Positions 1,682 through 42,423 of a DNA stretch of 64,000 bases are shown here, one piece after another; positions within the stretch are counted from its first letter, which is position 1; the number at the start of each line of letters is the position of its first letter. The position numbers and the translations under genes were made by a program. The notes beneath the pieces are model-generated. The model was not told the DNA's origin. It ran no database searches and saw only the letters and a list, made by a program, of their open reading frames with translations. This stretch comes from Raillietiella orientalis (lineage: Eukaryota), in NCBI GenBank assembly GCA_036172245.1, contig JAYWIR010000008.1:3410001-3474000 (forward strand), in the 5' to 3' direction.

Positions 1682-2501
1682 TCAGAACTTTTTAGATCGC
1701 TGAGGTAGCAGCACTTCTTGTATTTGACGGAATACAAACAGCAGTCCATATTTGTTGTTTCGTCGAGAGAAATAGTTGCTGACCACATCATCCTCTGGGA
1801 GTTGACCTTATCTTCAATATGTCAAATGGCGATTACTGACCTTTATAAAGAGGTCTTGTCTCAGCCAAGGTGGGAAGCACATGATCATTAGCTGACAATG
1901 ATATCAGGAATATAAAAGGCACTAACCATATGCAAATACTGAAATAAGCAGTAACCTGCAACAGAAATACAAATTTGGCAATCTCTACAATTCTGTTCCT
2001 CACCTGACTGAATGGATAAAATACTGATGTGAAGTGACAAAATGCTAAATAATGATGAAGAATGAGCATGGCTGAAGAAAAAAACAGAAACAAGTGTAAG
2101 AAACCTTTGCTCTCTTACCTAAAGCTAGGATAAACACAAAAGAAAATAAATTGATGTAAGGGAAAGTCTGCAAAAAGACCAAATACAGCCCTTGGCTCAC
2201 CAGCCCACAGATAATCATCATCAAGGGGATGTCCTCAAAGAAGAAAAGTCCTATATAAGAAAGTATTACTCCCTACTAGAGTAATTTTGTTTGAATATTT
2301 ATACCCTCTCACCAGGATCAGATAATTAATAATCTTCCGGCTGAGTACTGTATACTCTTCAATAAGCTCAGCCAGATAGTAGAGGCCAGCAGCTGCAAGC
2401 ACATGTGTGAGCTACTCATAGCTGGTCCACCTACCCAGAGATAAGGTGGCAAAGCATATATGGATGCCAAGTGCCAACCAACTTAAGAGATATAGGAACA
2501 T
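1682..2501 (-). CDS. TEX261: TEX261/Svp26-family ER-Golgi cargo receptor membrane protein; 6 coding exons separated by short introns
   Basis: Spliced translation MFLYLLSWLALGIHICFATLSL|AAGLYYLAELIEEYTV...LQTFPYI...HYLAF...CIWLVPF..ISLSANDHVLP...DDVVSNYF...LPQRSKKF* matches recalled TEX261 motifs. ATG at 2501, TGA at 1682-1684, GT-AG introns (e.g. 2393-2434, 2273-2312). Confidence 0.93.
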
Positions 2502-2571
2502 GTTACAAACAGGCTGTCCAGCTCCTCAGCCTTAAATCATCATAGGTGATCTGAAAATAGAACATTTATTA

Positions 2572-4005
2572 TCATGCTGGAACTCTGTTCCTTGGTTGCA
2601 CACATGCAATTCTGCTGCTGAAGCAGCGAGAAACATCGTTAGTGTTTATTGTAAGCCCACAACAAGGACACACAGATGCCTTCTCACGTTTCCCACATAG
2701 ACATGATCGACACATGTAATGATGACATCCTAACTGGTATAAAACATGCACTTGCTTGCAGGAAGCACACTGAAGGGGGGATCCTATGTTGGTGCAACGT
2801 AATGGGGGGACTGAATCCAAAGCTTCGTCTAATGATTTCTCCAGATTTTGTACGTGCTTATTAGATGTCCCACTGCTCTGGGCATCTCTTTCAGATTTCA
2901 TTACACCCACATCAACATCTTTTCTAGAAATGCCACTTGCACATAGTGATTCTTGAATGTTGCAATACAAAGGATTGTTCTTATTTGAATCATCACTTGT
3001 TCGCTCATTTGTAGAGATGTAACTGAAATCATACATTCCTACAGTTTGAGGACCCATGAGATGAATTTTTTGTCGGGCACATTGGAATTGAAAATGTTCA
3101 ATTCTACTTTTGAGAGGAACATTCAAAATGGGCTGCCTAGATTTACTGAGTACGACTCCTGTGAAGGGATCTGAAGGTGGATGGCCTAATATCTCTTGTT
3201 CATGTATGAATCGTTCCAAAGTTGTTTGATCTACTGATTTTCCACATGGTAATAACATAGGAACTGTCATCATTTGATATGTAATGGGATCTATAAATTC
3301 TTCTGGAATGGAAAAAGCATCATCAATCTGAGCAGTAGGAGAGTCCTGATCCTCAACTGTCCGAACAGAAGATTTTCTATTCCAAAACTGACAATGTAGA
3401 TGAGAAGCAGTCCATGCAGCTAAAATCTCTCTCGTAATTTCTGGATCACAATGCATACTAATGCTTCCCCATACTTGCAAATCTTTTAAACATGGGATCC
3501 CAGAATTGGCCACTTTTGTAATTTCAATTTTAAGTTTTGAAATGCACTTCATGTTATTACTTGCTCTTACAGTATAGGTATCTCTTTCTACAGCTTGAGT
3601 TTTGCTTTCCGATGCATGCACTGAGGATCTGATTTTAATTACTTTTTCTCCTGAAGTATAAAATGCTATGGCATTACGCCATTGTTGAGAAGGCTTACTG
3701 CAGGTATGTGGACAGTCTTCAACAAATAATCTAAAGCCACGTGAGATTTGTGATCGATTATGAGAACTAAAAATGATTTCACTTATATTAATACATGCAC
3801 CAAATGACACAGTTATGCAAACTGGTGGCCTGATAAATCTTTCTGCCATGAAACCCTTGCTTCTAAGCTGCTGGTTTACAGAAATCAGATTAGTAACTTC
3901 ATATCCATCTTCTTCGATTACTGAGCTATTCACTGTTACGTTGGTACAAGGATGACAAAAATTTATACATGGTGCTAAACAATTTTTACTTTTAAAAGGT
4001 GGCAT
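2572..4005 (-). CDS. UBOX5: U-box + RING E3 ubiquitin ligase (UBOX5/RNF37/UIP5), single coding exon, 477 aa
   Basis: N-terminal GYEVTNLIS...GFMAERFIRPPV; U-box IPEEFIDPIT...PMLLPCGKSVDQTTLERF...PSDPFTG; C-terminal RING CASC...CHHYMCRSC...CPCC. Confidence 0.93.
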   Translation of the reverse strand: MPPFKSKNCLAPCINFCHPCTNVTVNSSVIEEDGYEVTNLISVNQQLRSKGFMAERFIRPPVCITVSFGACINISEIIFSSHNRSQISRGFRLFVEDCPHTCSKPSQQWRNAIAFYTSGEKVIKIRSSVHASESKTQAVERDTYTVRASNNMKCISKLKIEITKVANSGIPCLKDLQVWGSISMHCDPEITREILAAWTASHLHCQFWNRKSSVRTVEDQDSPTAQIDDAFSIPEEFIDPITYQMMTVPMLLPCGKSVDQTTLERFIHEQEILGHPPSDPFTGVVLSKSRQPILNVPLKSRIEHFQFQCARQKIHLMGPQTVGMYDFSYISTNERTSDDSNKNNPLYCNIQESLCASGISRKDVDVGVMKSERDAQSSGTSNKHVQNLEKSLDEALDSVPPLRCTNIGSPLQCASCKQVHVLYQLGCHHYMCRSCLCGKREKASVCPCCGLTINTNDVSRCFSSRIACVQPRNRVPA

Positions 4006-7000
4006 TCTCAGTAAGGTTTCAAAAATGAGCCTTTATCCCTCTCAGATATGTTTCTTTCTTACTAATAAGAAAAAAACGATAATTGATACAAAGTCATCAA
4101 ATTTAACTCCAAAATTTCCACTGTTTTAATAATTCCTTCAACCTATGTGCTTTCAACGCATATCAATCAAATCTCTGGCAGCCACTATTCGTGGATTTCA
4201 TTTTGAAAAGCATCTGAAATTCAACTTAATTAAATGAATCAAACATAATTACTTATGTTTCGAATGGTGACGTAATCTAAGCACTAATTACGTTTAGCAA
4301 TCGGTGACCATTATTGCTGAATTAAGCAGAAGTGGCAGATCATTCTAACTATTCCATGCAAACAAATTTTCAATAAGAGTATTCACTTATGAATTTCTTT
4401 ATTATTCAATACATAGGGATTAACAATACGTATTTCTGAGTTAAACTTTAGAAGTTGAGGTTGATACTTCAGTTCTAGGAACTAATTAAGGTAATACTTG
4501 AACTTTCATAATTCTTAAAATAACGAGAAGGTGCGTAAGCGAGAACTTCACAAACCTAGCTGGAACGGTCAAAATGAACAGTAAACCAATATTCTCACAA
4601 AATCAAATGCATCTAACCAGTGAAACATATTACTACTAGTTAGATAAATACAACTACAACTCTACATGCAACACATTCTCATAACACTTCCTCGTTTAAG
4701 GTGATTCGGACCACGCATACCAACATCGAAATTTTTAATTATGTGCGAGATTTAAAAGTTATGAAGATACCGTTCAACAATCTTGATGCTTCCAGATTCC
4801 TCTTAATGTAATGTTTAATTTTGGAATCCTGCTCAATTCATTTTGTATAGAATCATATTTATGTGTGCAATGTTTAATACTTGCAAGACGAGGGAACATT
4901 CCGCTCACACGGTAGATTAGGTCGATAAGTTATTACAAAGTGATTCTGTTCCAGGAAAGAAAAATTACTATGTGTCTTGAATTAGGAAATCAGGTTTTCA
5001 ACTAGTGTAATGCTTTGTTTGATATGGTGGGGGAAGAGGCCAGATAGAAATGCAGACAATCTTCCAAATATCTCATTAGACATTGATCCATTTTTTCACA
5101 AGATTAGTGGTTAGATGGTGTCTTTACTTTGTTCTCTCCTTATTTTTTTTTGGTGCTTCACGGAGCACATCATCAGAGGAATTCCTACTATTGCTTAGAT
5201 TATTGAAAAATAGCTAAAAAGTCATGCTTGTAGAGGATGCAACAACCAAAATAATTAATATTGGCATTCAAAGATTAATTAATCAAATCCACTGATTCCT
5301 TATTCTGATTTGCTATGCCTTCAGGAGTTGAAATACGTTCTTCTGAAATAATACTAAGATTATTACTGCAAACGCTTGAATTTGCAATCTTTTTTAAAAT
5401 GCACAATTAATATTACCGATATTAACGACAAATGGATATTAATTCAGTGAGAATTTTCAATGCCCATTTCATGATTATGAATATCTTCCTTTTTACTGCA
5501 ACAATTACACTTGCAACTCTTGTGCATTCAAATTTAGAGCCTCAATCTCAGAATCCATCAACTAATTATAAACATGAATAATTTCAGTGAAAATAAGAAA
5601 CTGTTGTCATTCACCTGAGTATCTTTGAAGTAAATGTTCCCATTCTTTCATGAGGAGAAAAGTTACGTAAAAACTAATGATACATAATAATGAGACTTTC
5701 ACAAAATAAGCTCTGACTCTTGTCAGATATGATTCGACTTGATCATCATTCTTACATTACTTGAAAGTATTCAAATTCTTTGAGAAGCAATCAAATGAAT
5801 GGAGAAATTAAAGGGAAATTATATACCATTGTTGTTTTTGAGCTATTTAGCAATCAACACTTTCAAAAGTAATAAATAATATTCTAGATGACTAAATAAT
5901 CTCCCAAAAAGCAATCGAAAATACCACAAATAAATGAAACATTTATCAGTAACGTCAAAGTCGTGATGATGTCTACGGGAAAAACACTGTTCACTTCTAT
6001 CTTGATGTAAAAGTAGATTAACTGATGAACTCATGACTAATCGTTAATCTCTATATTAAAGAGAACAGCAACTAACCAGGAAGAAAACATTACTTATGGA
6101 GAAAAAAGAATTTCGCTGGAATCTTATATACCTTGAAATCATACAAAAAACTAATAGATTTTGTGTTGTGATCTCACAAAAACAAAAATGGTGTAGAGAT
6201 TTAAACAAAATTCCATTTTTGTCGTCACAGAAACAGAAGCTTCCTTATATATTATAAGAATTCTGTGGAAGCCATACAAATGTGGTGATTTTTTTTCGAG
6301 TTATTTTTTTAATCCTTTAGTTTCCTTGAAACTAATTTTTTCGCATTCATAAGCAAACATGCAGATTATTAAATTAGAAGCAATCCATTAGTAATGAGAG
6401 GAAACAACACAATACTTCAGATTCAATTTTATGATCCTTGACTTCCTGAAGGAATCTGTGTGAAAAGAACAATGTTCGAAGATGAAGGAAAGGTTTTGAA
6501 GCATACTGAACTTTAGTCATATTAATCTTGGGGATTATTTAAATGACATGACTTACTTGGGAGGAATGTGACAATATTGTTATTCTGTGAAAAACAGCAC
6601 AAGACGATTCACTCTGGGACAACATCACAACTGAGCCTTGTTTGAGAGCAATTCAGAGCACATATGCATGCAGACCGCGGAAACAAGCAGTAGTGAGTAG
6701 AGCAAAATTTTCTAAGCTAGAGGATGTATCTTTTATCTTGTTTTCCGTATGAAAAACTGATATCATGATGGAATATGATGGAAATTTATCTCGAAATCCA
6801 TTTTGCATTGTACAATCTGCTTTACGTCCGGAAACTAAAGTAGGTGTTCCTCCTGATTTCGGAAGCAGAAACTTGAAAGACTAATTCGAAATCCCCAAAG
6901 GAAAGCATATTCACCATCAAGATGCCCTAAATGCTCATTCTTCTGAAATTGATTTCAGACTTTCCATTTGTTAGCTTCTTTCTGTTTCACCAAATGGACA

Positions 7001-7199: not shown

Positions 7200-7640
7200 T
7201 ATTATGATGGAGAAATCCTTGTTGAAACATTCAACTGTACAGTCCTGAATAAAGGGACATAGCTGCCTTTCCCATCTCGGGCATCCTAATGCAACACTTG
7301 AAGTCGGATTTGGGAAGCATCGACTTCCAAGTGACCGTTTCTTGTTTGTATCTCGATTTTCTTCGATGTGTGTGTTGGATTCCTTCTTGATCGAAGCAAG
7401 CACCCGCCACTTCATTCAAGCAAACTCGGTGAATCGAGTCGAATAGGAAAGTGGAACTTGTTTCAGGTGATTGTACTTCCTTTTCGTCATTGCGGCCATG
7501 CATTCCCACTTTCTTTTCCTATACGTTGCAGTTTTTGTGTACATGGCAGTTTCGGAAGACTTCGGAGTTATCGCGTGATCCTCCTTTGTAGTACGAAAGA
7601 TGAAAACATTCATTTGAATCTTCTCCAGGTGCTGGGACAC
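7200..7640 (+). mobile_element. Decayed Ty3/gypsy reverse-transcriptase fragment
   Basis: Ordered degenerate motifs: DGEILVETFNCTVLNKGT (~DGSxRxCVDYRKLNKxT), SCLYLDFLRCVCWIP (~FSxLDLxSGYWQIP), LFQVIVLPFRHCGHA (~LFEFxVMPFGLCNA), YRVILLCSTKDENIHLNLLQVL (~YLDDILIFSxTxEEHLxHLxQVL). Frameshifted; catalytic DD lost. Confidence 0.55.
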
Positions 7641-7649
7641 CCGATTCGA

Positions 7650-8470
7650 TTTCGTTTTTCGTTTCCCCCCTCCCCCCCCCCCCTTTCAAAAGGTAGCTTT
7701 GTTTATTCGCAGTGCTTTCGAACCACGGGAAGATACGAAAACAAACCTCGATGTGACCTAGAAAGCCCTGCAGCAGGAGCATCCTTTCGTGTGTCTCCGT
7801 ACTTTCTCTCTGTCGGAAGCAGCGAGACAAAAAAACAATCTCAAGAACGATAAGGAAAATTTTTCTCGCTTCGCGGCTGCTGTTTTCCCGTTCGGTTCCC
7901 CGTGGCGAATGGTTCGGTCCTTGGCGGTGGCTAATCTGGAATCGTCAGCATGTGTTGCTGTTGTTCCTCCTCTCCTCCTCCCCCCCTCCCCCCCGTGTGT
8001 GTACAGAACACGTCCCGGGCTTGCGAAAACCGTGGCTGCACTGCGCGCATTCCTCCTGCCTGCATCCAGGCCGTCCCCGCGGGGTCGCAGTGCGCACGCG
8101 CAGAACACCCTTACGTGGCAGAATGAATTTCGTGCGATGAATCGCAGTGGCCGCGCTTATTTGTGGCGCACTGCTGGTCGGGAAAGTGGCGACGGGAGGA
8201 AGTCCCCCTCAAAAAAAAAAAAAAAATCCTGGTCTTTCATTTTGGTCGCCTTCAACCTGAAAGTGTTGCTGACGTGTGGATGTTCCCTCTGGAGTGCAAG
8301 TTACGCGCCTACCACGGGAAAAGGGGCATTTTTTCCCGGCTGAACGGTGCCGAGTAACCTTCAGGATAATGCCATGTTTGAGATGCAACACGAAAAGTTG
8401 CTTAACACTTAGCTGTTCGGGAAAAGTGCCAGTGTTGTTGTTTTCAAAATTCGTTTTTCCCCCAGGTCAG
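7650..8470. promoter_or_regulatory. CpG-island-like GC-rich segment; probable promoter/first non-coding exon of SEC24
   Basis: Local rise in GC and CpG with C and A homopolymers, ending at a donor-like CCCAG|GTCAGT (~8466). Acceptor ACAG|G at ~9068 precedes the SEC24 ATG. Confidence 0.45.
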
Positions 8471-9101
8471 TGAGCACAGAATGTTCTGAAACGCGTTTTA
8501 GGAATATGGATTAAAAGCCTTTTTCGTGGTGAGAAATGTTTTAACAACCGAAAAGCTTTGAAGCATTTCTGTTAAATTTAGGACATGCGAACAATTTTGC
8601 TAAGGACTGTGTATTGTGAGTACATTTTTTTTCTTTTTTGTACCATGTATGCGTTGTTTCACATGAAATCAAGTACAACAGAAATGATGCGATTTAAACC
8701 ATGCTTGATACTAAGTAGAAAAAAATGAAAAGAGATGTAACGAAGTGTGTCTTCCTGAGTAAAATGATTGATTGGTGCTAATGCCTTTGGCTATTAGCAT
8801 TGACAGATTCTGTGCCAAACGTTGAATGATCTTTAATGATTACGCAATCTTCGTGATCATATGATTCTCCACAATCCGTTGTAAATCATTGTGTTTCCGA
8901 TGCATACATATTATTTCTATTTTAAATGCGATTAAAATCAGATTGGTTGCATTGCTTTTCATAAAATTCGTCTTTGCATTAGAAGTTTTGTGCTGTTAGA
9001 TATTATAATCTTACGCATAATAAAAGCGATGAAAATTCAGTATATAAACATGTTATTGATGATAACAGGATATTTGATATGCCAGTTAATTGGGACTAAG
9101 C

Positions 9102-12100
9102 ATGCATTCACAATATGCCGGTTATCCAACCCAGATGAATGGAGGAAATTACGTTGGCATGCGAGAAGAGCAACTTAAGCCGGGGAGTAAGTTAAAAACA
9201 AAGCATCTTGCAGAAGCATCTTATTGATAAATTTCACTGATTATAGGTTATCCTCCTCCTCCTCGGCCCTATGCGTCTTCTGCACAGGGAACACATGGTA
9301 AACTTTTCATTGTTCTGTTCAGTCATAAAACGAGTTTGATTTTTTGTGATATCAGTAATCTGTATGAAAATGTACTTTAATTTATAAAGTTACGTATACC
9401 ATGAATATGTAGACTACATGAGTTTGCAGTATTCTGTAATTGGCAAGATAGCCCTTAGAAATGCCAGTAAAAATTTGCTTTATAAAAATCATGTAGGTTA
9501 ATAAGAAAAGGAAAAAAAATCTCTGGCATTTAATTTTACATATATAATTGTATAAGCATTCCATTTAATTTAACCATTTGCTTTACAAGTGTTATATGAA
9601 GTCATTATGTATCTAACTTCAAGTTATTGTTTGTTGCTTATTAAATCATGTTAAATTTTCTCTTTCTAGGCTTACCTCAGATCAGACCAGAAAATTTGGC
9701 ACATGCAACCCAGCAAATGCATAATCTCTCTCTAAAAGAGCCCTTGCAAACTCCTAGGCAGGTACTACAGTAGTTTGCAAACAAAGAAAAGTGAAAAGAA
9801 TGCTGGAAGAATCTTTACTTGCAGTCAAATGGTTACTCTCCTGCGCCTTCTAATGCAAATTCTTTTAATTTGCAAGATCGAAGTATTTTGCCCCCTTTTC
9901 CAAATACTGGTGGACAATCACAATTGAATGGGATTAATCCAACTTCTAATGAGCAACGATGGATGCCAAATAAACCGTTATATGCAACATATCCTAATGT
10001 GCCCACTGTTTATGATCATGCTAATGGCCCTGCGATGAAACCAGAGCAGCCAATGACGTACAGCAGTGTACCACCAAACAGTTATCAACATGCAGCCCCT
10101 CCTCTGCAGCAGGTAATTCAAATTTACTTGTGTTCATGTCGCATGTTTGTTTTTTTAGAATAAACAGCTTGGCAATGGAAATCACATGCCACCAATTGAT
10201 TCCATGCAGAATGTGCTTCCTGCAGGTCCTGTTCCTCAGTCAAGACGTTTAAACCCAGATCAGATGCCAAGTCCTGTAAGTGAACTCCATGCATTTTCCA
10301 TGTATTTTTTGGATTAGGTCCAAGTGATTGAAGAAGATAGGAAGAATAAATCAGGAGTATATTACAGCCGTCCTAAAGGGGACATACCACCTCTTGTTAC
10401 TACACCATTTGTGAGCCAAGACCAGGGAAATGCATCTCCCCGTTTTGTGCGTTCATCTATGTATCAGATTCCTGATGCCCCTGATATGCTGAAACAAGTA
10501 GAAGATAGTGTTCATTTTTTCTTTTTCATTTAGAGATTTTTCAGTCTTCCATTCCCTTTGCTCTTACTGTTACACCATTTGCAACATTAGTTGAAGGTGA
10601 ATATGCACCTCCTTTGGCTGACATGGGAGATATGGGACCAGTTCGCTGTAATCGATGCAAAGCTTATATGTGTCCTTACATGCAGTTCATTGATGGAGGA
10701 CGGCGCTTTCAGTGTGCGTTTTGCAAAGCTACATCAGAAGGTATGAAGAGAAATAAACAAAAACATAGCATGTGTCATAGTGCCTGCCGAATATTTCCAG
10801 CATCTTGACCATTTAGGCCAACGAGTGGATAAGTTCCTGAAGCCAGAGTTATGTCTAGGAGCTTATGAATATCTGGCCACTAAAGATTATTGCAGAGTAC
10901 GTAGTTACTTAATAATAATAGACTGTTAATAATAATAGACATGATGTTTTGTAGAATGGCCAGTTGCCTGCTCCTCCTGTTCTTATATTTATCATTGATG
11001 TCAGTTATAATAATCAGAGAAATGGCTTGGTAGCATTGTTGTGTCAACAAATGAAGCAAGTTTTAGCAGAATTACAGCAACAAGTAGCTGGTGCTCAGTC
11101 AGCCATGCGTGTTGGCTTCATAACCTTTGACAAGGCAGTGCACTTCTACAATATTAAGGTAAATTCTGTTGCATATGGATATCGTTATTATCACAAGGCA
11201 GGGGTGTCTATCACAACCTCAAGTGCTTGTTGTTTCTGATGTTCAAGAAGTGTTTGTTCCTTTTCTGGATGGCTTTTTATGTGACATACAAGAGTCTGAG
11301 ACTGTTTTAAACAGTCTCATGGAACAGATCCCATCAATGTATGCTAATAATCGGGAAACCGAAACAGTGTTGGGACCAGCCATTCTTGCTGGTTTGGATG
11401 CTGTGAAGTCTGCAGGTTGCTGTGGAAGATTGCTGGTATTTCAAGCAACATTACCTATTGCAGAAGCGCCTGGAAAATTGAAAAATCGAGATGACCGCAA
11501 GTTTTTGGGAACAGATAAAGAGAAAACCGTACTAAGTGAGTATCTATGATAAATATGAATTTCTATTACACTTCAACAGCTCCACAAAGCAACTTCTATA
11601 CAAATCTTGGACAAGAATGTGTCAGCGTAGGCTGTGCTGTTGATTTATTCGTATTTCATAATGCTTTTGTTGACTTAGCTACTGTTGGGCAAGTAGCACG
11701 TATCACAGGTGGATCCATCCACAAGTATTCATATTTTCAGGTTTGTGAAATTTCTTTGTGTAATTTCCCCCTCCCCCTTTTTTTTCCATTGGTTTTAGGC
11801 CGAGATAGATGGTGAGCGTTTCATTAATGATTTGAAACAGCTCTTGAAGAAGCAGATAGCTTTTGATGTAACCATGCGAATACGCACTTCCACTGGAATT
11901 AGACCTGTAGACTTCTATGGTCATTTTTATATGGCCAATACAATGGATATGGAAATGGCTGTCTTGGATTGTGACAAATCTATTTGTGTAGAAATTAAGC
12001 ATGATGACAAGTTGACTGAGGAGGAAGGAGTGTTTATACAAGCAGCAGTGTTGTATACTTCATGTCAGGGACAAAGACGTTTACGCATTCTCAATGTGGC

Positions 12101-12990
12101 GTGGCAGATTTGCTCCAAACTTTCAGAGATGTTCCGTTGTTGTGAACTGGACACTTTGATGAATTTCTTAACAAAATGGGCTGTTTCTCGGGTGCCAGAA
12201 TCCACACCACGTAATTTGAGGGAAAGTCTTATCCAGAGAGTAGCACAGATCTTGGCTTGTTATCGAAAAAATTGTGCTTCACCATCTTCCTCTGCCCAGT
12301 TGATTCTCCCTGAGTGCATGAAACTGTTGCCCTTATATCTGAATTGTCTTTTGAAATCTGATGTACTTGCTGGTGGTGCTGATTTATCTGTTGATGATCG
12401 TGCTTTTCTGATGTACTCAGTGCAAACCATGGATGTCCATTCTTCATTGGTCTATTTGTATCCTCAGCTGTATCCACTTCACCTTATACATGAGCATACA
12501 GATAAACTGCCATCTATGTTACGTTGTTCCCAGGACAAGCTATCAGAAGATGGAGTCTTTTTACTAGGTCAGTTACAAAAAGTCTAACATATTGCGAAAA
12601 TGTCTTTGCTAGAAAATGGCATTTATTTATTCATATGGATTGGATCAAAAACACCATCTCAGTTTTTGTTATCAGTATTTAATGTGGCTGTGATCACACA
12701 ATTACATCCAGAAATGACATCACTTCCTTGTTTGAATAATCCCATTTCAATACAGATTCGACACTTTATTGATGAGATTCAGAAAGAGAGATCCAGAACC
12801 TTAAAGGTAAGTCATCTACTTGAACTATTGAAAATAATAGATTCCCTAGCTTGTGTTGGTTCCTCAAGATAGTAAGCTTGAAATTGTATTTCGCCATTTT
12901 CTTTGTGAAGATAAATTGTCAGAAGTTCATATGTCCTATATAGATTTTCTGTGCTTGATGCATAGGGAAATTAGAAATTTATTAAATTGA
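9102..12990 (+). CDS. SEC24C: COPII coat subunit Sec24C/D; many exons, introns mostly 40-60 nt
   Basis: P/Q-rich N-terminus ([11 protein letters not shown]...), [23 protein letters not shown], zinc finger [30 protein letters not shown], trunk FIIDVSY...[39 protein letters not shown]-terminal [18 protein letters not shown]. Start exon inferred from splice-consistent frame. Confidence 0.95.
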
Positions 12991-18749: not shown

Positions 18750-20050
18750 ATCGTAGATTCTCTCCAAGAATTTCCGTTTCCGCGATTTAGGAAAACGAGG
18801 AAAGGCGATGCTTGCAGGGAGAGTGGTTTGCATCCACGGAACTGATGCTGAAAGAAGAAGAAGAAGAAGAAAAATGGGAGAGATGGAAAGAGCGGAAGCG
18901 GCGAAATTCTCCACCGAAATTGGGATCGCTGATGGCGGCGACACTGCTCGCAACGCTGACCGCGGCACGCACACCACGACGGAGTTCGCTGGAACAAAGG
19001 AGGTGTGCTTTTTTGCGTGCACGTGTACCACCTTCACCCCGCGTGCAAGCTTATACTGGAAGAGAGAGAAAAAAAGAAGAAGATTTTTTTTTTTTTTTCT
19101 TCACGATCATTTCACCTCCTCGCATGTAAAGGGCCGATCGGACGAAGGAAAAACCGTGCAGCGTTTGTGCCGCCGCCCGGGAAGGACGTCGGTACGGACA
19201 CACCGCTGCATCACCGCCCACCCCCGACGTGCCGAGCATCCGACTCGTGCTGCTGTGCACCCGACTGTATCCGTCAGGAGAGAGAGGATGGGGGAGAGGG
19301 ACCGACGTGCAGATGATCCTGAGGAGGGGAGGGGAGGGAACCTTTTAAAAGATGACTTTCACACGCATGCACGGAGAGCGTCGTCGTCCGATTTTCCAGA
19401 CTGGTGTCGTGACGACACGCCAGCGAAGGTGAACGCGTATTACTGCCGCCGAGCCGTGCCCTCCCCCCCCCCGCTCCCTCCCCCCGATAAGCCGTGCAGG
19501 CGCGCGGAAACACCGAAACGACGCGGGGCGGGGGGGGGGGGGTCGGTCGGTCCTCTGCGGATCGAAGGTCTATTTCCGATGTAAAAGCGGAAGGGATCGC
19601 AGCCGCATCCGTCCCGGAAGAGATTTCGCTTCCCTCTGTCACTCTCTTTTTCCGCAGAAAAAGGAAACGATCTTCCATTCGGGCCGTGCGGCGGAATGGT
19701 TGCGAGGAGGCGTTTCCTTGACTCCAAATAAGCGCCTACTTCGTGGTGCAAGTGCGTTGTCGTAGGCGACCGGAGTGAGTGGATGGTGCAATGTGGAGTG
19801 CAAACAAGTAGGAGCATAAGGCACCGGGCACAGTCATTCTTTCTGTCTTTTCTTCCCCCCCCCCCCCTTTTTTTTTTGTTTTTTTATTTTTTTTTGCTTT
19901 TGTGTGTGTTTTCACATTCGGGGTAATAAATTCCAGTGTGGTTTCCACGGACGGCAGGTTGCTACGATGGGTTGTTTTACGTGACAGGAGCTGAAAAGAG
20001 CCTGTTAGGGAAAGCAAAACTGTGTCGTCGTTGCCATCCGAGAGTAAACT
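18750..20050. promoter_or_regulatory. CpG-island-like GC-rich region upstream of kindlin (promoter/5' UTR)
   Basis: High GC and CpG with GAA repeats and C/G/T homopolymers, directly 5' of the kindlin ATG. The overlapping ORFs are low-complexity. Confidence 0.5.
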
Positions 20051-20091: not shown

Positions 20092-23000
20092 ATGTTGAAT
20101 GAAGACGTGACCGGCAATTCGTGGAGTTTGCAAACCTGGATTACAGATCTGCAGATTCAAAAAACGATTACTGTAAGAGGGGATCTGCATATCGGCGGTG
20201 TGATGCACAAGCTAGTGAATGAAGTTGGTGAGTTTTTTTTTCTTCTTCTTCTTTTTTTTTTTTTTTTTACTCCCCCCCCCCCCCAACGCGTATCAAACAT
20301 TACTGTTCTGCCGTTGTCGCATACACAGCTGAAAGTAAAAACCCCGATTTTCTTTAGAACCGATGTCGAAATTTTCAATTTGCAGAAGATTATGCTCACC
20401 GAAACGTGAAAGTTATAATTGGTTTCCATGTCTCTCACACGGTGAAATACTTCATATTGTATCAGTAGTTTACGAGTACATTTGGGAGACATGTTTGACT
20501 ACATGTGTCAAGTGCACAAGATATATGTTTCAGCAAGATAATGCATCAGCTGGTTTGAATTTGTATCAAATTTTGACCAAAGCTGCAGAAAGTGGCATAC
20601 AATCCAGTAGATTAGTAGTGTCCCTTATGGCTACTAGGATTTTTTTTGGTATCCACCGAAATGCATGGCTAGTTTACATCTGTTTGTGCCCCATATGGCC
20701 TTGAAGTTTTCAAATTGTAGTCTTGGGATAAATGTATTACATACAGCAATATATACGTGATGGAATTCGATGATTCATAATTCGGTATGTTAAATCTATA
20801 AAATCGATCTTAATCGCTTGAAAGTGGCATTTATTATGTCAGAATCTGAGTGGGATATACTCAACATTTCTGGAATTTATGAGTTGAGGTAAGATTCAGG
20901 GGAGGCAAATGGTAGCCTGATTTTATCCATTAGAGAAACTGCATAGATTTAAATCTCCTTTCCAATACTTTAGATACCCAGAGAATGATAAAAGTGATGA
21001 TGTTGTTTATGAAAAGAATGAAAAAATTAGAACATGTCACCTGAGTAGATTAATGATTCTGGCAGTTCAACTTTCTATTGCAAATGTCATGAATTACTGT
21101 CAGGATCTCTTGTGCCAGTAATTAACAAAAGGACCGTAGTGTTTTGGAGTTTCATTGAAATTTTGATTGTTGAATCTGACTTGCAAGCACGTGTTGCATT
21201 AACGTCAATTTGTAAAGAGAAGATAAGAATAGGAGGTTTATATGTTCTGTTTACTGAGTCTTATGTAAAAATAATGATGAAAAGGTCTCAGGTGTTCATT
21301 TTCATCTGGATTTCTCTGGTGGATTTCTTTTCCAATCAGTTTGTTTGAAAATTCTATAGTTCATTGTTCTCATTTACATACATCCTACTTTCCATGCTCT
21401 TAAGACCTAACTTGATTTGGATGTCATTTTGAGCTCTTAGTTTGATACATATTTGTAGTTGTGGGAATACAGAGGTACTTTATCAAAAATACAAGTAAAA
21501 AATACGTCAACAGATAGAAATGTGATTCAGCAAGCAAACAGAAATGTGTCCTGCTTAGTTGTGTTATTGTAGTAAAACAAGGTACTGTTGCTCAATCCTC
21601 TCTAACAAAAAATGTAACCTCTGAATATTTTATGAAAATATTAATGCTAATATGATTTTTTGCTTATTATTTTTTACAAGTCACAATCACATGAACATAA
21701 TGGTTTTTTGTTTATGTTTTATGATGAAGTAAGTTCTGTCTATGAGAAATGTTGATTTGTGAAGTCATTAATGTATGTAATGTGTTTTCCATTCAGGAAG
21801 CATATCAGTAAACTTGTGAAACTGCTTCCTCAGTTGATCATATGCTTAAGATTTGAAGTGGCTATTACATAAAACAACCAGCAATTGTAAAATCAATTCT
21901 TATGTTATAGTTTTGAATCAGGTTATCAGGTATCAGGAATGAAAAGTCAATTGATGTGTGTCTGCTCATTGTATTACTTTGAAAGTTATTATTATGTAAT
22001 TTGATTTTCCTGTTTGTAGATATGTGAACATTCTAAACTGTACAGATGTTTCAAACTGTGTTGTTTCTAGGAATCGCTTGTGATTGGTCAGATCATGCAT
22101 TTTGGTGTCCCCCCAAAAATATATGGTTAATGAGAACAAAATCTACTTTGGATCAGTATGGAATAATGGCAGATACTCTTTTATACTTCACTCCAATGCA
22201 CAAAATGCTGCGTATCCAACTGCCAGACTTGAGATATATTGATTGCAAAATAGATTGCTCAGTGAAAACATTTAATGCTGTTTGTCAACTCTGCAAAGAA
22301 TTGGGTAAGAAAACGTTACTTTATGAAACAAGGTGACTTTATTGCTAGATTATCTATGAAACTTTCAAAAATGGGAATTGAACACAAATTGCTCTGATTG
22401 TGTTGAAAGGCTCCACGGAAACTTAGAGTAGGCTTTTGATAATTTTAATGATGGTGACTAATCTGTGAAAATGGACTTTCTCCCAAATTGATCGATTGTG
22501 CTCGCAAATTTCAGTTGCAGATGTTCAAACTGTCATGTGCTTTCAAGGTTTTCTGTGTATCACTAATGCACAACAGAACTCTCTTTAGTATGTTGCTACT
22601 TTTGTTGAGATTTTCATTGTCGACTTTGTCTTGTATACATGCGTTGCATTAAAAAATTAGCCAGACTAATGACTATCCAGCCTTTTGTTACCAGTGTTCA
22701 ATATATGAAATTTGAAATGCTTGCCATTGAGTTTATCACTGCCCTGCAAATATTGCTGCATATTCCTTTAAGTATTCATTTTTTTCTCCTCTCTGCTTTT
22801 GTGCTCAATTTATGTTTAATTTTTTTTTTCTTCCCTTGTGCTTCAAATTGAAAGCTTACTGTTTAGTGGATGATGGCATCATGCCATTTGTTGTGGTTCT
22901 TTTACTCTGCGTTTCATTTAATTTGTCTTAATGTTTTGTAATTCAAGAGAGAGAGCAGGAAGTTTTGGCTTAATGAGACAGGTATTATTGTAATGATTCT

Positions 23001-25862
23001 CTATGTGTGCAGTATTGAATCAAAAATTAATTTGTTCATCTTATAAAATCATCGGGTAGTCTGCTTCCTTAGCTCGATTTGTTCCTTACCCTTTCACACA
23101 AGATGAAAAAGTTCGCCTTTGTTGTGCCATTTGAGCCTGTGACATTTGAGAATTTATGTTAAGGAATTAATATGTTGAGCTCTGAATGTTTTAAACATTC
23201 ATCCAAATCTATGTCATCGTAATCCCATTTATGTTAGATTCAAAAGGCTTGCTATACTTATTTGCAGGTTATTATTTGTGTGTTGATCTCCTGCCAGATT
23301 TGCAAGATGAAATTTTTCGGATATCAATAGCAATATAGTATGAAAGGGAAAATGAGAAGCACAGTGCTATGCTTTCCCAGGGATCAAAAATTTTTTTCGA
23401 GTTTTCAATACCATACTTTTAAATTCGGTGATATTTTAGTTTTGGGCGAGCTGCTGTATTATCGGTTTTATTTTTTATGTTATTTTTTACATCGAAAATT
23501 TTTGATGATAACGTGTATGTTGACAAAATATTCAATTCTCTTATTGGTAACTTGGGAGTGGCGTGTTGAATGTGTAATTTCCTAAGGAAAATAGTGACTT
23601 CAAGTAGCTTTTTCAACCCAAAGGTATAGAGCATCCAGAAGAGTTGTCTTTTCGGAAAGTTTTGGGACCAGAAGATTTGAAGTATAATTACGCAGAGCAT
23701 CCAGTTCACAAGCAGAGAACAGCAGCTTCACCCGACACTAATAGTTTCATAGCTTCCAATGTAAGTGACGGCAGCAGAGATCAGTCATTTGGCAAGATAA
23801 GCCCTGCCAAAAAACCTATATCTCCTGGGACAGCATCCTACTCAGTATGTTGTGCATTTTTTTCTAGTGAGGGGAAGCCAAATTAAAGTATTCTGAAGAT
23901 TTTACATGCGGAAATTTCCAAAGCAGTGAGGCGTTCCCTGTCGAAAGAAGTGATTAAAAAGACGGGCGAACGTAGTCTTGATGCGAGGAACGTAAATTTT
24001 CGAGATGCTTTTGTTTCCTAACATTAACAGTAACATTCTTGTGAATAGAGTAATACAGAGGAATGGGGAAAACATTTCTGATCGAAACATTTCCAATTGT
24101 CCTAATGACAATCGCTTTGATAGTATGTAAAGTACTCGGTAATTGAATTATGTGTGTTCTTACCGTTATTGTTTGTGTTATTCCTGTGTTTTTGTAGAAG
24201 AGCATGACACATGACTGGTCAGGGGAGAAATCAATGCTCAATACTTCCTATAATGGATTAAGCAATAGTGTACTTAATGGATTGGGTGAGCACAATGAGC
24301 AGCTGTTCTCAACTAGTCCACTGCCCACCGATGAAGCTCGTGCTAGTCTTTTGCATCCACATAATTTAGTAGAACGGGCCCGTGTTAATGTATCGTGAGT
24401 ATGCTTGTGTGCCTGTTAAAGCTATTCTGTGTTTTTTCTGCAGATGGTTGGACTCTTCGCTATCAATAATGGAGCAAGGTGTGCAGGAGTTTGATACACT
24501 TTTGTTACGATTCAAGTTTTATATGTTTTATGACTTGAGTGGTGCAGTGCGAATACATCAGCTCTATGAGCAAGCTCGTTGGCAGCTTCTTAACGAAGAG
24601 GTTGATTGCACAGAAGAAGAAATGCTTATGTTTGCTGCTCTGCAGGTGAATAGATGGTATAGGTCTATGCTCCTTTGACTATCATTGCTAGCTTCAAGTA
24701 AAACTTCAAGAGAATAATCCCCAGCTGTCAGTCACAAACAAGAATCGAGATGATGATATCGAAGCAGCTCTCAACAATTTGCAGTTAACATTAGAAGGAA
24801 ACAATGTTGGAGTTATTCCGACAGACATTGTTCAAGTTCCTGAATTGAGTGGCCTTCTGAAGTTTCTTCGTCCAAGCAGATTCACGTTGAAGCGCTATAA
24901 GCGTTACTGGTTTGTGTGCAAGGATCTGCAGTTACTGCTGTACAAATCCCCTGAACATGATAAGGGCGATCCATCACATGTTATAAGTTTACGGGGCTGT
25001 GAACCTTCACCTGATGTTCACATTGCACATAGCCACTATGGCATAAAACTGGAAGTTCCTGATCATGAAGGCATGTCAGAAATTCGCATACTTTGTGACA
25101 GTGAAGATCAGTATGCTCATTGGATGGCTGCCTTCCGTTTGGCTTCCAAAGGCAAAACTCTGGCTGATAGCACTTATGATAATGAAGTGAAATCAATACA
25201 AGCATTTCTGTCCATGCAGCATCCGTCTGCAGCTCCTGCTCCAATCATTTCTTCTGCTGACCTCAAAATCAACCCTGAAGAATACGTTGCTAGCAGATTT
25301 TTGAAACGTTCCCGAAGCAAGGTAATTTTGAATGAGGAAAAAGGCTAATTTGCTTATTGCTAATTTGCTTTCCCAGCTGGTCCAGAGAATCCTAGAAGCC
25401 CATGCCAATGTCAGTGGTCTTTCCTTGATGGATGCAAAAATGAATTTTATCAAAGCCTGGCAATCATTGCCAGACTATGGCATCACTCTGTTTGTGGTGC
25501 GCTTCCAGGATCATCGTAAAGAAGAATTACTTGGGATAGCCTTCAACCGACTGATGTGTATGGATTTGCATTCAGGAGACCTGCTGAAGACATGGCGATT
25601 CAACTCCATAATGGTGAGAAATTTTGTGCGCTTCCAGCAAATGATATTCTTGTAGGCATGGAATGTCAATTGGGACAAGAAAATGATGATGGTACAATTT
25701 GAAGAACAAGCAAAGGCTATCAATTTTTTCTGTTTATCAGCAGATTGTAAAGTAATTCATGAATTCATAGGTGGTTATATATTCTTGTCCATGAGGAATA
25801 AAGACGTCTCGCAGAATTTAGACGAAGAAATGTTTCACAAATTAACCACGGGATGGGTGTGA
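20092..25862 (+). CDS. FERMT2: Kindlin/fermitin (UNC-112/Fit) FERM-PH integrin adaptor
   Basis: Exon 1 [25 protein letters not shown] (20092-20227); exon 2 [26 protein letters not shown] (22071-22304); exon 3 [10 protein letters not shown] (from 23624); [20 protein letters not shown] domain [64 protein letters not shown]. Single invertebrate-type gene, so the paralog number in the symbol is nominal. Confidence 0.95.
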
Positions 25863-26031
25863 TGTGCCTTAATGTGTGTAACAGCCTTAATGTGTATTTA
25901 AACAACTAACTTTGCTATACACATGAAAGTAATGCTAACTGAAATAATTTGTGCTGCCAGATATTTATAAGCTATAATTTTAAAAAGGAAAAGTTTGAAT
26001 AAAGTAATATATTCATAAGACAGTGATTTGA

Positions 26032-29000
26032 TTAATTTTCATCGCCTTCAGATTCCTCGTCCCCGGCTCCTTGATCTTCCGTATCATCTGATTCCTCCGA
26101 TTCCGAGTGAACCTCGTCCTCGGGAGTTGGATCGTTCCTTTCCATTAGTTCTATACCGATAGGCATATACTCCATCTGCAGAGGTGCGACGATCGGAGGG
26201 CTGTAATCGTGGGCTAAATTTTTTAGTCCTGGACCAACATAAATGTTTCCATAGTTGCTGCAAGAGATGTGACAAGAGATAATTCTTTGGCATCCTGCAA
26301 GGTTTTTACGTGCAACCAAGCAGCGACGACAGCGTTGCCCGGTGCTTGAAGCACGCGGGGTGCGTGCACTGTATTTGTTTTCCCCTTGTAGTCGTGGCAG
26401 CATCTCGAGTTGCCTGATGGCTTCATCCCGTTTCCGGAAAAAAGCGTGTTTGAACCGGCCGAACGCCCCCGCGTGATGACGGCCCCGATCCGAATGCAAG
26501 CGCAACAGGCTGCAAGAGGTGCCGTCGTGCGCCGCTGCTTTCCAACGCTTTTCGTGCGCGCCGTCTCCCCGCCGCAGCCAGCGGAGTCCTGCCCTTTCCA
26601 TCCGAAATGGGCAGGCGTTTTTGTGACAAGCGAGACGGAGGGAGAGCCGCATCAGGGTTCGCCCGTGGGGCTGGTGAAGTCTGCGTCGTTGCCACGTGTG
26701 ACCACGCCCGTGCTTTGCTCGCCTTTCCGAGCCCTCCTCGGTTCCATTTGCAGACCGAAGTTGGCGCACTTCGCGAGAAAAGAACGTTTGCCCCCTCATG
26801 CTACTGAGGGGGTCATCCTTAGGTCAGCTTCCCTCGGGTTGGCTGCTCCCGCACCGTGCTGCAAAATGAGGTTGCCACTCGGACAGAAGGGAGGAGGAAT
26901 CGCTGCCGGATGAACCCGCGTCGGAAACGAAAGCACGTGCAGCAGCGCCGACGACGACACGGGAAAGGAGCAGGCTTGTCCACGTCACGTGTCGCGCCGC
27001 CGCTCGAAAAAGAGCCTGCTCTGACATGCCGCCCTGTGGGCGAATCGGCCCTTTCTCAAGGAGTCCGTGCAGCCGATTGTCCGTGGTCTGGGAGCGCGCT
27101 GCTCTGCCTTTCCCGGAGGGAGTGTCATGCCGAGACCCGCGCTCCCTCAGGGAAAGGCGGAACCGGTGGCAGCGTTGTCCCCCCAGCCGGGACGGAAGCT
27201 GCCCTTCAGAGGGCGGGCGAGCGGAGATGAAGATGACCTGAGACTTGGAACCGACGTTTTCGGTGGCGGCGGGCTCTGCCCCCGCAGAGAGCATCCGGCG
27301 AAGCCGCGAATGGCACGAGGTCAGCCAGGCGGTGGCGAAAGGAAGGGGAAATGACGCTCTGGCTGGCTGCCCAGATCTCGTTCCAACGACGGGGGCGGTT
27401 TGAGCGTGCGCAGTGCTGCGCGCGGTTCGTGTCCTGTCAGGCCCGCCCACATCCCCACGGCTTGCGGATGCACGCGTCGCGTCTGGGTGGATCCTGGGAG
27501 GGTCTCGGCGGCGGCCCCTCCGACCAGAGTTTCTCTCTGTACGGAAAACGAATCGATAAACAAGCAGTAAATAAGGATAAACACGGATGACCGCGAGCAA
27601 GCGGATAAACGAGTGAATGGACAAATGCGCGGGAACCCTTTCTCCTTTCTCTCCCTCCCCCCAAAAAACCTCCTGAAGTTTTTTTTTTTTTTTGAGGGGA
27701 AGGGGGAGAACTTAGAACTTCAGAGAAGGAATCTCTCTGCTATTCTGCCTTCCTTTCGTGTAGAGCCTACAGTGAAGGCGGCTGCTTTCGGGGAAAGCGG
27801 TTCTGGTCTTCGGTTTTCTCCCCCTCCTGGATTGTAGAGACCGCTCGCGGCGGTCCGAAAGCTTCGTCTCCTCCTCTTCCCCCCCCCCACCTGTCTCTCC
27901 TTTTCTCCCCGCCACGCCCTTCCTCCTCCCTATCAGCTCTCCTCCGTACCGGCGGTGCCCGAAAGACGCTGCCGACTGCGAGAGAGGGAGACGGGAGACA
28001 TCACAACCTCCCCCGCAGCCACTCGGGTGACCGCTTATCTCCTCCCTTTCCCTGTCCCTTGCGGCGGAACTCGCCGGAATGCGGCAGAGGGGAGGTGGTC
28101 GGTCAGTAGAGTCGCGTGGCGAGTGGGAGGGCGGACCTAAGCGGTCGAGCAAGAGAGCGTGTGCATCCCTCCCCCACCCACTGCCCCACTCCCTTTCTCC
28201 CCGACCCCGTCATTGACGAGGGTGGGCAGCTGCCAAGGTTCCGGTGTTCCCTCCCCTTTCCTTCCTGGGAGAAGGACCTACTTACATCCCGTTGCTGTAG
28301 GTGACGGCTCCGGACCAGATGTTCGACCGGACCACAGCCATGCGCCTGCCTGCCAGCGTTCCCTCCGAGAGGCGCGTGGACCACGCCGGCGTGCTGTCCA
28401 TCCCGTTGTCCTGCGACACCAGCGACAGGAGAGGAGGTCCGACCTCGGGCTCGGGGGGCATCGCCCTTCGCCGATAGGCCGATATGCTCTCATCCTCGTC
28501 CCCTTCCTCTTCCTCCTCCTGGAACGCGCGCGGGACGTCTGGCGGGGGAGTGTTATCCTGGTCAGGTCTCGCCAACGGCGGCGGATCGAGCGCATGTAAG
28601 ACTCCCTCGCCTCCCCCCTCCCTCCCCTCCTAAGGGAAAAAAGCACGAGGGCTCCGAGGAGTCCCACATCCCGTCTGTCTCCGAGCAGCGCGGGTTCCCT
28701 CGGTTCTCCTTCTCTCCGAAGGGAGGTGGGGGAGACTCCACGTGTTCTCCGCCTTTCCCTACAGGAGACACGCGTGGGGAGGAGACAGGGAGAAGAGCAG
28801 ACCGTCCTTCCCTCACGCGCACCCCACCGAGCCACCGAGGGATAGGGAGGAGGAGGACCCATCTGCTTCCTGACATTGTCAGGGGCGGCGGACGAGGACA
28901 GCTCCATCCACTTCCTTCCCTCGCGCGCGCTCAAGGAGGGGAGGGAGGGGGTGGTTGGGAGATTTCCTGCTCCAGGGTCCGCTTGCTTTCGTTCTCCTTC

Positions 29001-41000: not shown

Positions 41001-42423
41001 ATATGTGAAACGACTTCAACACCAAATGTTACTGGAGTGATTTCGACACACGAGGTGAATGATGTCGTTTTCCAATTCCTCACGAAAACGCACCCCAAAC
41101 TGCCTTCCACTTTGTGTATTCTTCAAGATAGGGGGTACCCCGGGAGAGGTCCGCCCTATGAATCCAGGAAGGACTCGGAGCCCGTTCCTCTCACGTCTGG
41201 GGAGGGATCCCCGGAAATTGAAATCACCTCCACCCTGGTTGTCTCCGAAGGGGAATCCCGAAGAAAATCTCCATCTTTATTCTCTCCGGAGGTCCCCCGG
41301 GGGGGCCCGCTCCATTCTTTCTTCTCTGAAGGGAACACGGAAAGGACCCGATCCTGGAATTTCTTCTCTGGAGGGATCCGCTCCTGTTTTACTCCTCTGA
41401 AGAGAACCCGGAAGGGACGCTTCCGAAATTCAGAAGGACGCAGCTACCCCGAAGAGATCGGCTCGCTTCTCTGCACTCTCTGGAGGGGTGGTGGCGACAC
41501 ACCTACTCCATCAGTACGACGCGGAGGGTCCTCCCGGAATAGGGTGTTCCACTCCTTCACAACAGATGGGGGAACGCTCCACTCCGTGATTCCTTGAAGG
41601 ACCCGGAGGTCGATTCCCATTTGTCCCGGCCCTCATCGGGGTCATCCGGTTTTAACCGCTGCCAATGTCGCACCCGGATGAATGTAGGCCAGCCCGCGTC
41701 ATCTTGTGGGGTGAACTCGGAACCCACAACGCACTGCGTCGATTCCTTCGGAGTATTCGAACCCACGGCGCATGGTGCCACGCGCGGAGACCACCGTAAC
41801 CGCACAACCTCCGGCGTGGGCACTCCGAGAACTTTGTACATTCAAAGTTCTCCACGTATTACACGTTGGGATGTGCTCCAATTTAACCTAAATACGCATT
41901 GGTTGAATCAGGTGACCACCTTTTTCACAAGGCGTTTGATTGAGAAGGGTCAGAAAGTAAAATTTACGAGCCAGCCGAAATTAAGTGTGACTCTTTTCAC
42001 AAGGTCTCTCCCTCCCCTTCCCCCTCGTCCAAATCTGGAAATTCAAATCTCACCTCATGGATGAATAACTCAATTTGTTTATTGCAAAAATCCAGCAAAG
42101 CTTTGTCTATAGGAGGAAACTGGATCGAAAATGCTTTAGCCTCCTTGGCTCTTGCATTCTTAATAGCTTGGCTGATTTCCTCTAAGCATTCGATGCCATC
42201 ATCTGGCTTTCTGTTCAGAAATTCTCTGATGACTTCAACCAGGTGACCATACCTAACATCAGAAAATGAGAAAATAAAATCCGAAGGCAAAAAGCAAAGG
42301 CCATTACAAATTGGTGTTGTATTTCGGACTGTTTCTCATCAGGCTGGCTTTTGCTAGCTGGAATGCAGATTCACTATCACGGTCGTCTCTTGCGTGAAAG
42401 GATTCTTTTTTGTCTTCACTCAT
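26032..42423 (-). CDS. RSPH4A: Radial spoke head protein 4/6 homolog. 10 exons: 42423-42308, 42252-42054, 38770-38583, 35798-35699, 31239-31089, 30390-30251, 30173-30026, 29964-29807, 28518-28286, 26257-26032
   Basis: Phase-consistent GT-AG assembly gives [16 protein letters not shown]..., [137 protein letters not shown], acidic tail; all recalled RSPH4A/6A hallmarks. The ORF track misses most of these exons. Confidence 0.92.
32300..34200 (-). mobile_element. Decayed Ty3/gypsy pol (RT + RNase H) in RSPH4/6 intron 4
   Basis: Colinear degenerate motifs: [22 protein letters not shown] (~LLEKGFIRPSxSPWSAPV); [13 protein letters not shown] (~YPLPNIDELLDRL); [13 protein letters not shown] (~LMNEVLGDL); [36 protein letters not shown] (~ILQTDASxVGLGAVLSQ); [28 protein letters not shown] (~NVVADALS). 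Confidence 0.6.
37480..38340 (+). mobile_element. Decayed Ty3/gypsy RT in RSPH4/6 intron 3 (antisense to host)
   Basis: [25 protein letters not shown] (~PPYRMSPxELEEL..LxELLxKGFI), [11 protein letters not shown] (~IPKTAFxTxxG), [29 protein letters not shown] (~ISxEGV..KVxAIxxWPRPxNVKELxSFLG). Confidence 0.5.
39240..39760 (+). mobile_element. Possible decayed LTR-retrotransposon integrase core in RSPH4/6 intron 2
   Basis: PRPFRQLAH (~xRPWQRLHID), IHGWVPAE (~HSKWVEA), [14 protein letters not shown] (~SxPYHPxSNGLAE), [10 protein letters not shown] (~LLAYRTT), in order but weak. Confidence 0.33.
41112..41830 (-). mobile_element. SINE-like repeat copy 1 with two tandem tRNA-like (B-box) units at the 5' end
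   Basis: Colinear similarity to 60302-60945 (shared TTCTTCAAG.TAGGGGGT, CCCTATGAA.CCAGG, TACTCCTCTGAAGA, GAAGGGACGCTTCC, GATTCC.GAAGGACCC, CACAACCTCC). The minus strand carries GGGTTCGAATAC and a second GGGTTCCGAGT motif. Confidence 0.7.

Follow-up and report, generated by a model that had tools for sequence, protein, structure and literature searches.

UBOX5 (RNF37) and TEX261 (Erv26) are neighbouring genes on the minus strand of a 64,000-nucleotide (nt) stretch of Raillietiella orientalis DNA (contig JAYWIR010000008.1; hereafter the window), with the end of the first packed closely against the beginning of the second. The UBOX5 stop codon TGA (2574-2572) is followed, after a single base, by the hexamer AATAAA (2570-2565) and this in turn, after 12 nt that are mostly pyrimidines, by the dinucleotide AG (2552-2551), with the TEX261 start codon 49 nt further on. 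Stop codon, AATAAA, acceptor and start codon are thus contained in 74 nt, and all of these coordinates, which had been given in an original prediction made from the letters alone, hold on the minus strand. The distance from stop to ATG is 70 nt, which is below the 100 nt used as a spacing criterion for operons. The arrangement is unusual, and chance is still a possible origin for it. It is rather probable, judged from the sequence, that the two genes belong to one transcription unit, in which either/or processing at a composite polyadenylation/acceptor site, through splicing in cis or through a spliced leader, would give one mRNA or the other. More tentatively, the cis variant is put forward, in which UBOX5 would be nested and the promoter and a 5′ exon would be common to both genes.

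The gene downstream of UBOX5 is recognised as TEX261 by its exon open reading frames (ORFs), which match the Pfam family Erv26 (PF04148) with E-values of 1.9e-17 and 2.7e-07 at profile positions 52-118 and 97-170. Its introns measure 42, 40, 47, 48 and 46 nt, and the structure of exons 1 and 2 agrees with that of a second TEX261 locus, in a metagenome contig, which is described below. UBOX5 is, on similar grounds, a complete RNF37/UBOX5 gene without introns. An in-frame TAA (4035-4033) lies upstream of its ATG at 4005, and the encoded protein matches DUF5918 (PF19318, E 4.6e-37) and then the U-box (PF04564, E 3.6e-16), both of which are present in all 15 database relatives (E ≤0.001, 1,744 candidates). 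Seven of the 15 relatives are named, five being from molluscs, one from a fish and one from a mite. Residues 14-460 align with residues 3-540 of scallop RNF37 (543 residues), and the Cys/His pattern of a C-terminal Cys-rich RING-like finger (residues 413-449) aligns with the finger of the scallop protein, while no Pfam RING model matches UBOX5 at an E-value of 0.01 or better. The original prediction had drawn attention to the lack of introns in UBOX5 among intron-dense neighbours, and this is borne out: at the intron densities of the neighbouring genes, finding zero introns in 1,434 nt has a probability of 6e-6 to 8e-3. Because of this improbability, the intronless state suggests a retrocopy placed in a host intron. 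UBOX5 relatives were also sought in metagenome contigs, where none of 30 pattern matches was upheld by tblastn. In the literature no paper was found that names UBOX5 together with TEX261, and none, as judged by title, that is relevant to TEX261 and operons.

The strength of the potential splice sites was scored with matrices built from 20 introns of the window, five from TEX261 and 15 from spliced alignments of Sec24C and kindlin. Of these 15, 14 are backed by at least two alignments and the acceptor of 10113-10167 by only one of three Sec24C alignments. Left out of the matrices as ambiguous were 9191-9246, 9298/9322-9876, 10008-10049, 10068-10167, 10113-10209, 10685-10748, 10897-10963, 12192-12236, 21191-22070, 22305-23623 and 23845/23849-24222/24227. 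Nineteen of the 20 confirmed introns are 40-58 nt long, the shortest measuring 40 nt. The acceptor at 2551 scores 7.9 bits, above 17 of the 20 true local acceptors in leave-one-out scoring, and of 5,609 other AG sites, counted without the GC-rich block and without the training set, 80 reach a score at least as high. Sites of this strength occur once per 1,192 nt per strand, which corresponds to ∼0.06 expected in the 70-nt gap between the genes. The hexamer AATAAA is present in 75 copies in the AT-rich part of the window, or one per 1,272 nt per strand, with ∼0.05 expected in the gap. The combination of an AATAAA with an equally strong AG 5-30 nt further on is found just twice in the window on both strands (128 kilobases (kb) of strand), the other occurrence being located within a genuine intron of SAC1.

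The distribution of CpG dinucleotides sets the TEX261 start apart from its neighbours. In the kilobase upstream of the TEX261 ATG, 13 CpG are observed where 40.0 are expected (observed/expected ratio (o/e) 0.33; Poisson probability of 13 or fewer given 40, 6.7e-7). The corresponding counts are 22 against 25.9 for UBOX5 (o/e 0.85), 38 against 36.5 for Sec24C (1.04), 85 against 77.0 for kindlin (1.10) and 32 against 31.9 for SAC1 (1.00). TEX261 is therefore alone among the five mapped starts in being without a promoter-like CpG signature; its upstream kilobase is as depleted as a gene body, and the depletion is continuous across the junction. Such a pattern, with CpG depletion in gene bodies and none in promoters, is what would be expected if gene bodies were methylated and promoters were not. 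The depletion argues against a separate TEX261 promoter of the local type and in this respect agrees with the original prediction, which saw no room for one, but that claim was too strong, as transcription could begin in the coding end of UBOX5 or in the 49-nt leader.

A parallel is provided by the metagenome locus mentioned above. A search of the metagenome contigs for a conserved TEX261 peptide, made with a degenerate pattern, gave exactly one locus, L001 (JAAGOD010070629.1, 1756-1869). Here TEX261 starts 108 nt after the stop codon of a gene on the same strand that is identified as DDX41 by the Pfam domains DEAD, Helicase_C and zinc knuckle and by its best solved relatives, which are DDX41 (E 5e-41). 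Between the two genes an AATAAA (1805-1810) is followed, after 16 nt, by an AG (1827-1828) that ends a pyrimidine-rich tract, and then by a further 38 nt and the ATG at 1867, and the CpG depletion also crosses this junction (o/e 0.26-0.69). In the window and in L001 alike, 56-63 nt separate the AATAAA from the TEX261 ATG. The layout thus recurs with another gene upstream, which argues that the stop-AATAAA-AG-ATG design before TEX261 may well be functional.

In the proposed mechanism, transcription of UBOX5 and TEX261 would start from a promoter upstream of UBOX5, located in the nearest CpG-undepleted stretch (∼4250-5000) or in the island at 7250-8500. The element 2570-2551 would combine, in 20 nt, the UBOX5 poly(A) signal with a pyrimidine tract and AG, any branch region being located upstream. 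Along the first route, cleavage and polyadenylation at this element would produce a UBOX5 mRNA with a 3′ untranslated region (UTR) of ∼20-35 nt. Along the second, a non-coding 5′ exon would be spliced to the AG at 2552-2551 to produce the TEX261 mRNA, and the UBOX5 ORF would leave within the 5′-UTR intron. The ratio of the products would be set by the competition between splicing and 3′-end formation. Cleavage usually takes place 10-30 nt past a poly(A) hexamer. With 12 nt between the end of the AATAAA and the AG, cleavage is expected at or just past the AG, where it would separate or destroy the acceptor; as a consequence, the UBOX5 and TEX261 mRNAs would be mutually exclusive per molecule, irrespective of whether the partner is supplied in cis or in trans. 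UBOX5 itself probably entered the first TEX261 intron as a retrocopy.

The 5′ exon that the cis variant calls for is represented by candidate donors, which are found at 4062, 4252, 4555, 4617, 5614 and other positions. The original prediction had proposed a 39-nt intron upstream of UBOX5, and its GT (4252-4251) and AG (4215-4214) are indeed present; but at 39 nt it falls short of the smallest confirmed intron by one base, and since 14 GT..AG pairs of this quality were counted in 34,808 nt of non-coding strand, or one per ∼2.5 kb, the pair is unremarkable on its own. A donor had likewise been placed at 4062, where GTAAGA (4062-4057) is found, but with 6.4 bits it is of middling strength (above 7 of 20), and the site can equally be read as a UBOX5 acceptor, through the overlapping AG 4063-4062 (3.3 bits, above 10 of 20). 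The acceptor reading is mildly favoured by the distribution of ATG triplets, of which there are none between 4061 and 4006 and four in 4213-4063. Further minus-strand donors of at least 6 bits are located at 4555, 4617, 5614 (11.0 bits), 5755, 6076, 6131, 6556 (9.4 bits) and 6914. Together, the upstream candidate donors and the acceptor-like site before the UBOX5 ATG make it possible that alternative 3′ splice sites are chosen from one 5′ exon. Of the proposal that one promoter gives two mRNAs, co-transcription without an own TEX261 promoter is thus the part that is favoured (by the acceptor, the CpG pattern, the intronless UBOX5 and L001), but the splice from 4062 depends on a donor of only middling quality. 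The apparently non-coding minus strand of 4300-7000, between the CpG island and UBOX5, contains several strong splice-like sites, namely the donors at 5614 and 6556 and two acceptors, one at 4560 (7.9 bits) and one at 5973 (7.4 bits). Together these may represent non-coding exons of the UBOX5/TEX261 unit that are not annotated, and Pfam gave no matches in this interval.

Several observations weigh against nesting and co-transcription. The strong site at 2551 raises the odds of a functional acceptor by an estimated ∼3-fold only, because true acceptors in this region are often weak. The CpG ratio is an indirect proxy for promoters, and the DNA upstream of TEX261 is coding. GT sites of at least 6.4 bits occur once per 727 nt, so that the candidate donors are ordinary and the 5′ exon common to both genes is only putative. 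The flanks of UBOX5 carry no marks of recent retroposition, neither an A-run or poly(A) remnant nor a target-site duplication, the sole 8-mer common to both flanks being TTTCAGAT. The leader downstream of 2550 contains an upstream ORF (uORF) of three codons, from the ATG at 2543 to TAA 2534-2532. Finally, the multi-exon DDX41 of L001 is a poor fit to a model in which the upstream gene is nested in an intron, and for L001 as a whole an operon or a compact promoter is a better explanation than nesting. The likelihoods expressed here were weighed from Drosophila base rates, from the acceptor and the AATAAA, from the CpG pattern and from the intronless ORF, together with L001; each of these lines is soft and was shrunk, and a remainder was left unassigned.

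Next to the cis variant, a somewhat unlikely explanation is a spliced-leader operon without intercistronic DNA, of the type known from Ciona and from the SL1 operons of Caenorhabditis elegans. From a polycistronic pre-mRNA, UBOX5 would end at the AATAAA-directed site and TEX261 would be capped by trans-splicing to the AG at 2552-2551, while UBOX5 might itself be trans-spliced at AG 4063-4062 or 4215-4214. Such an operon would explain the anatomy, the strength of the acceptor and the continuity of the CpG depletion equally well as nesting, and the DDX41-TEX261 layout of L001 more simply; in addition, a strong acceptor (8.8 bits) precedes the ATG of SAC1 as well, at a distance of 56 nt. The UBOX5-TEX261 gap is the single tight pair among the seven mapped genes, the other spaces measuring several kb, which speaks against this explanation. 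Rfam gave no matches at all in the window and hence no SL RNA gene, which also counts against it, but SL RNA genes are normally located elsewhere. The animal of origin appears arthropod-like from its protein matches, with no near relative among the database entries: for Sec24C the ostracod Cyprideis torosa comes first, with 62% identity and 417 bits, and insects come next (55-61%, among the best 120 of 1,750 matches), and the closest named matches of kindlin are from malacostracan crustaceans (56-59%, 72 matches). Best matches that are arthropod, with only 57-62% identity, count against a spliced-leader operon. Trans-splicing is known in some crustaceans, namely copepods and amphipods, according to excerpts of PMC7986045, PMC5111886 and PMC4664967, but the excerpt of PMC7986045 states that, as of 2021, operons were unreported in trans-splicing arthropods. 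For ostracods, nothing on spliced-leader trans-splicing was found, as judged by title. The clear depletion of CpG in gene bodies is a further point against this explanation, since an excerpt of PMC12460157 describes how gene-body methylation has been lost in several trans-splicing phyla. On this somewhat unlikely reading, the locus would be an operon resolved by a spliced leader in an arthropod-like animal, and TEX261 would have been recruited behind UBOX5 here and behind DDX41 in L001, in at least two lineages.

Unlikely as well is that UBOX5 and TEX261 are independent genes in tight packing, with a compact TEX261 promoter in the coding end of UBOX5 or in the 70-nt gap. In that case TTTTCAGAT would either match by chance or be an element of the initiator type; the AATAAA would serve UBOX5 only or act as a weak TATA-like element. 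The low but real expectations calculated above for an acceptor and an AATAAA in the gap leave room for chance, and the similar distance from AATAAA to ATG in the window and L001 could itself reflect a compact promoter that is conserved. TCAG (2554-2551) resembles what we take to be the arthropod initiator, which is in favour of an own promoter, but the AATAAA lies at about −19 from it, presumably too close for a TATA box. In addition, in contrast to the four other starts, the 1.5 kb upstream of the TEX261 ATG contain no CpG-undepleted stretch, the window is otherwise not compact, and an AATAAA 12 nt from a top-tier acceptor has only one other counterpart in the 128 kb of strand. Overlaps between same-strand neighbours are nevertheless described as common in Drosophila (PMC4528330, in excerpt).

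A mature dicistronic mRNA that keeps both ORFs, with TEX261 translated by reinitiation or internal entry, is very improbable. It would require neither the AATAAA nor the strong acceptor, so that both would be coincidences; reinitiation after an ORF of 477 codons is inefficient, and the spacer contains the uORF. The short same-strand spacer and the unbroken CpG depletion over the junction are compatible with such an mRNA, as are the 159 annotated dicistronic pairs of Drosophila, where 2.5% of the protein-coding gene models have a polycistronic transcript (PMC4528330, in excerpt). A UBOX5-TEX261 fusion protein is ruled out by stop codons in all three frames of the leader (2550-2501).

The reading of one transcription unit with either/or processing can be compared with several known systems. 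In the cholinergic locus, the textbook case of a gene pair with a common promoter and 5′ non-coding exon, the intronless VAChT lies within the first ChAT intron. As in that locus and in other common-promoter pairs, a candidate promoter is separated here by the intronless ORF of the upstream gene from the downstream gene's first coding exon, both ATGs have acceptor-like sites ∼50-57 nt in front of them, and two mRNAs would arise by alternative processing. Unlike in these pairs, the common exon is only putative here, and the UBOX5 and TEX261 proteins have no known functional link. We know of no common-promoter locus described as having the nested gene's poly(A) signal fused to the host acceptor, as in the present case with 12 nt between them. 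FlyBase lists 130 genes with a common promoter and 5′ non-coding exons, for example Ip259/RpS27A (PMC4528330, in excerpt). Ciona operons, as described in an excerpt of PMC1488885, mostly lack intercistronic DNA, the poly(A) site of the upstream gene coinciding exactly with the acceptor AG of the downstream one, and their expression may be mutually exclusive per transcript; AATAAA is absent from 16 of 18 of them and kept in the characterised SL1-type operons of C. elegans. The UBOX5-TEX261 pair resembles both groups in its same-strand, putatively dicistronic arrangement, with a candidate upstream 3′-end signal that abuts the downstream AG and with either/or expression expected, and by the presence of the AATAAA in the gap it is like the C. 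elegans type and unlike most Ciona operons. In contrast to both, trans-splicing is putative here and the arthropod-like affinity lies outside the phyla with documented operons. For CheB42a/ppk25 in Drosophila a cleaved dicistronic pre-mRNA has been proposed (PMC4528330, in excerpt), and the present genes are likewise a tight same-strand pair, possibly in one primary transcript. Drosophila dicistronic loci are, however, defined by mature mRNAs with two ORFs or by proposed splicing-free cleavage, whereas here a poly(A) signal and an acceptor intervene.

Table 1. Features of the UBOX5-TEX261 region and other genes of the window.
Feature	Position	Strand	Remarks
TEX261/Erv26	1682..2501	-	6 exons, 597-nt coding sequence, 198 codons, no internal stop
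TEX261 exons	2501-2435, 2392-2313, 2272-2119, 2071-2004, 1955-1841, 1794-1682	-	
TEX261 leader	2502..2550	-	49 nt, from AG to ATG 2501-2499
Candidate 3′ splice site of first TEX261 exon	2551..2564	-	pyrimidine tract and AG (2552-2551), TGTTCTATTTTCAG; use putative
Candidate UBOX5 poly(A) signal	2565..2570	-	AATAAA hexamer; use putative
RNF37/UBOX5	2572..4005	-	one unbroken ORF, 477 codons, ATG 4005-4003, TGA 2574-2572
Ambiguous splice-like site	4057..4077	-	T-rich tract and AG 4063-4062 overlapping GTAAGA 4062-4057; 57 nt before UBOX5 ATG
Candidate 39-nt GT..AG intron	4214..4252	-	GT 4252-4251, AG 4215-4214; donor 4.8 bits, acceptor 4.7 bits
Candidate promoter zone	4250..5000	-	first DNA without CpG depletion going upstream from the pair, o/e 0.75-1.23 (250-nt windows)
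Alternative candidate promoter, possibly bidirectional	7250..8500	.	GC-rich CpG-undepleted island before divergent Sec24C; GC 0.46-0.58, o/e 0.9-1.17
Sec24C	putative ATG 9102	+	
kindlin	ATG 20093	+	
Radial-spoke-head gene	∼42335 to 26035	-	
SAC1	ATG 47192	+	
WD40/SOCS-box gene	∼55000-57000	-	

The seven recognisable genes of the window (Table 1) are set in DNA of mosaic composition, with AT-rich gene bodies (CpG o/e 0.15-0.48) and GC-rich stretches with a CpG o/e of ∼1 at 7-9 kb and 18-20 kb. That these GC-rich islands are repeats or transposons was considered and rejected, self-BLAST having given one weak 73-nt match and Tandem Repeats Finder (TRF) one microsatellite. Long homopolymer or C/T-rich tracts at 7660-7690, 7960-7995, 19860-19900 and 20235-20285 mark the islands upstream of Sec24C and kindlin, as well as the first kindlin intron. 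A block at 26000-42300 is sharply bounded, with 56-65% GC and a CpG o/e of 0.8-1.1 between flanks of 30-40% GC, and has no internal repeats. Radial-spoke-head Pfam matches are found on the minus strand at both of its ends (42000-42335 and 26035-26823), and the entire block seems to lie within one gene of cilia type.

In SAC1, the plus-strand intron 49603-49648 is apparently of the GC-AG type, as the frame is continuous only with GC at 49603 and AG at 49648; an AATAAA is also present in this intron, as is a further strong AG, at 49636. The acceptor-like AG 56 nt before the SAC1 ATG is located at 47135 on the plus strand, downstream of a CpG-undepleted stretch, and scores above 17 of 20 true acceptors. 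It could mark a 5′-UTR intron or a trans-splice site.

In automatic annotation, UBOX5 and TEX261 could be fused or misplaced. If the TEX261 start site lies in the gap, the pair is a case of ordinary tight gene packing. If a spliced leader is the partner of the acceptor, operons would extend to an arthropod-like lineage, and the output of the two cistrons would be set by polyadenylation versus trans-splicing at one 20-nt element. The pair would then match the rare intercistron-less operon type of Ciona and C. elegans SL1, the origin of which is an open question (PMC1488885, in excerpt). If UBOX5 and TEX261 are co-transcribed, the 20-nt element would decide between the mRNA of a ubiquitin ligase and that of a cargo receptor for export from the endoplasmic reticulum, and would provide a compact natural case of competition between splicing and polyadenylation.

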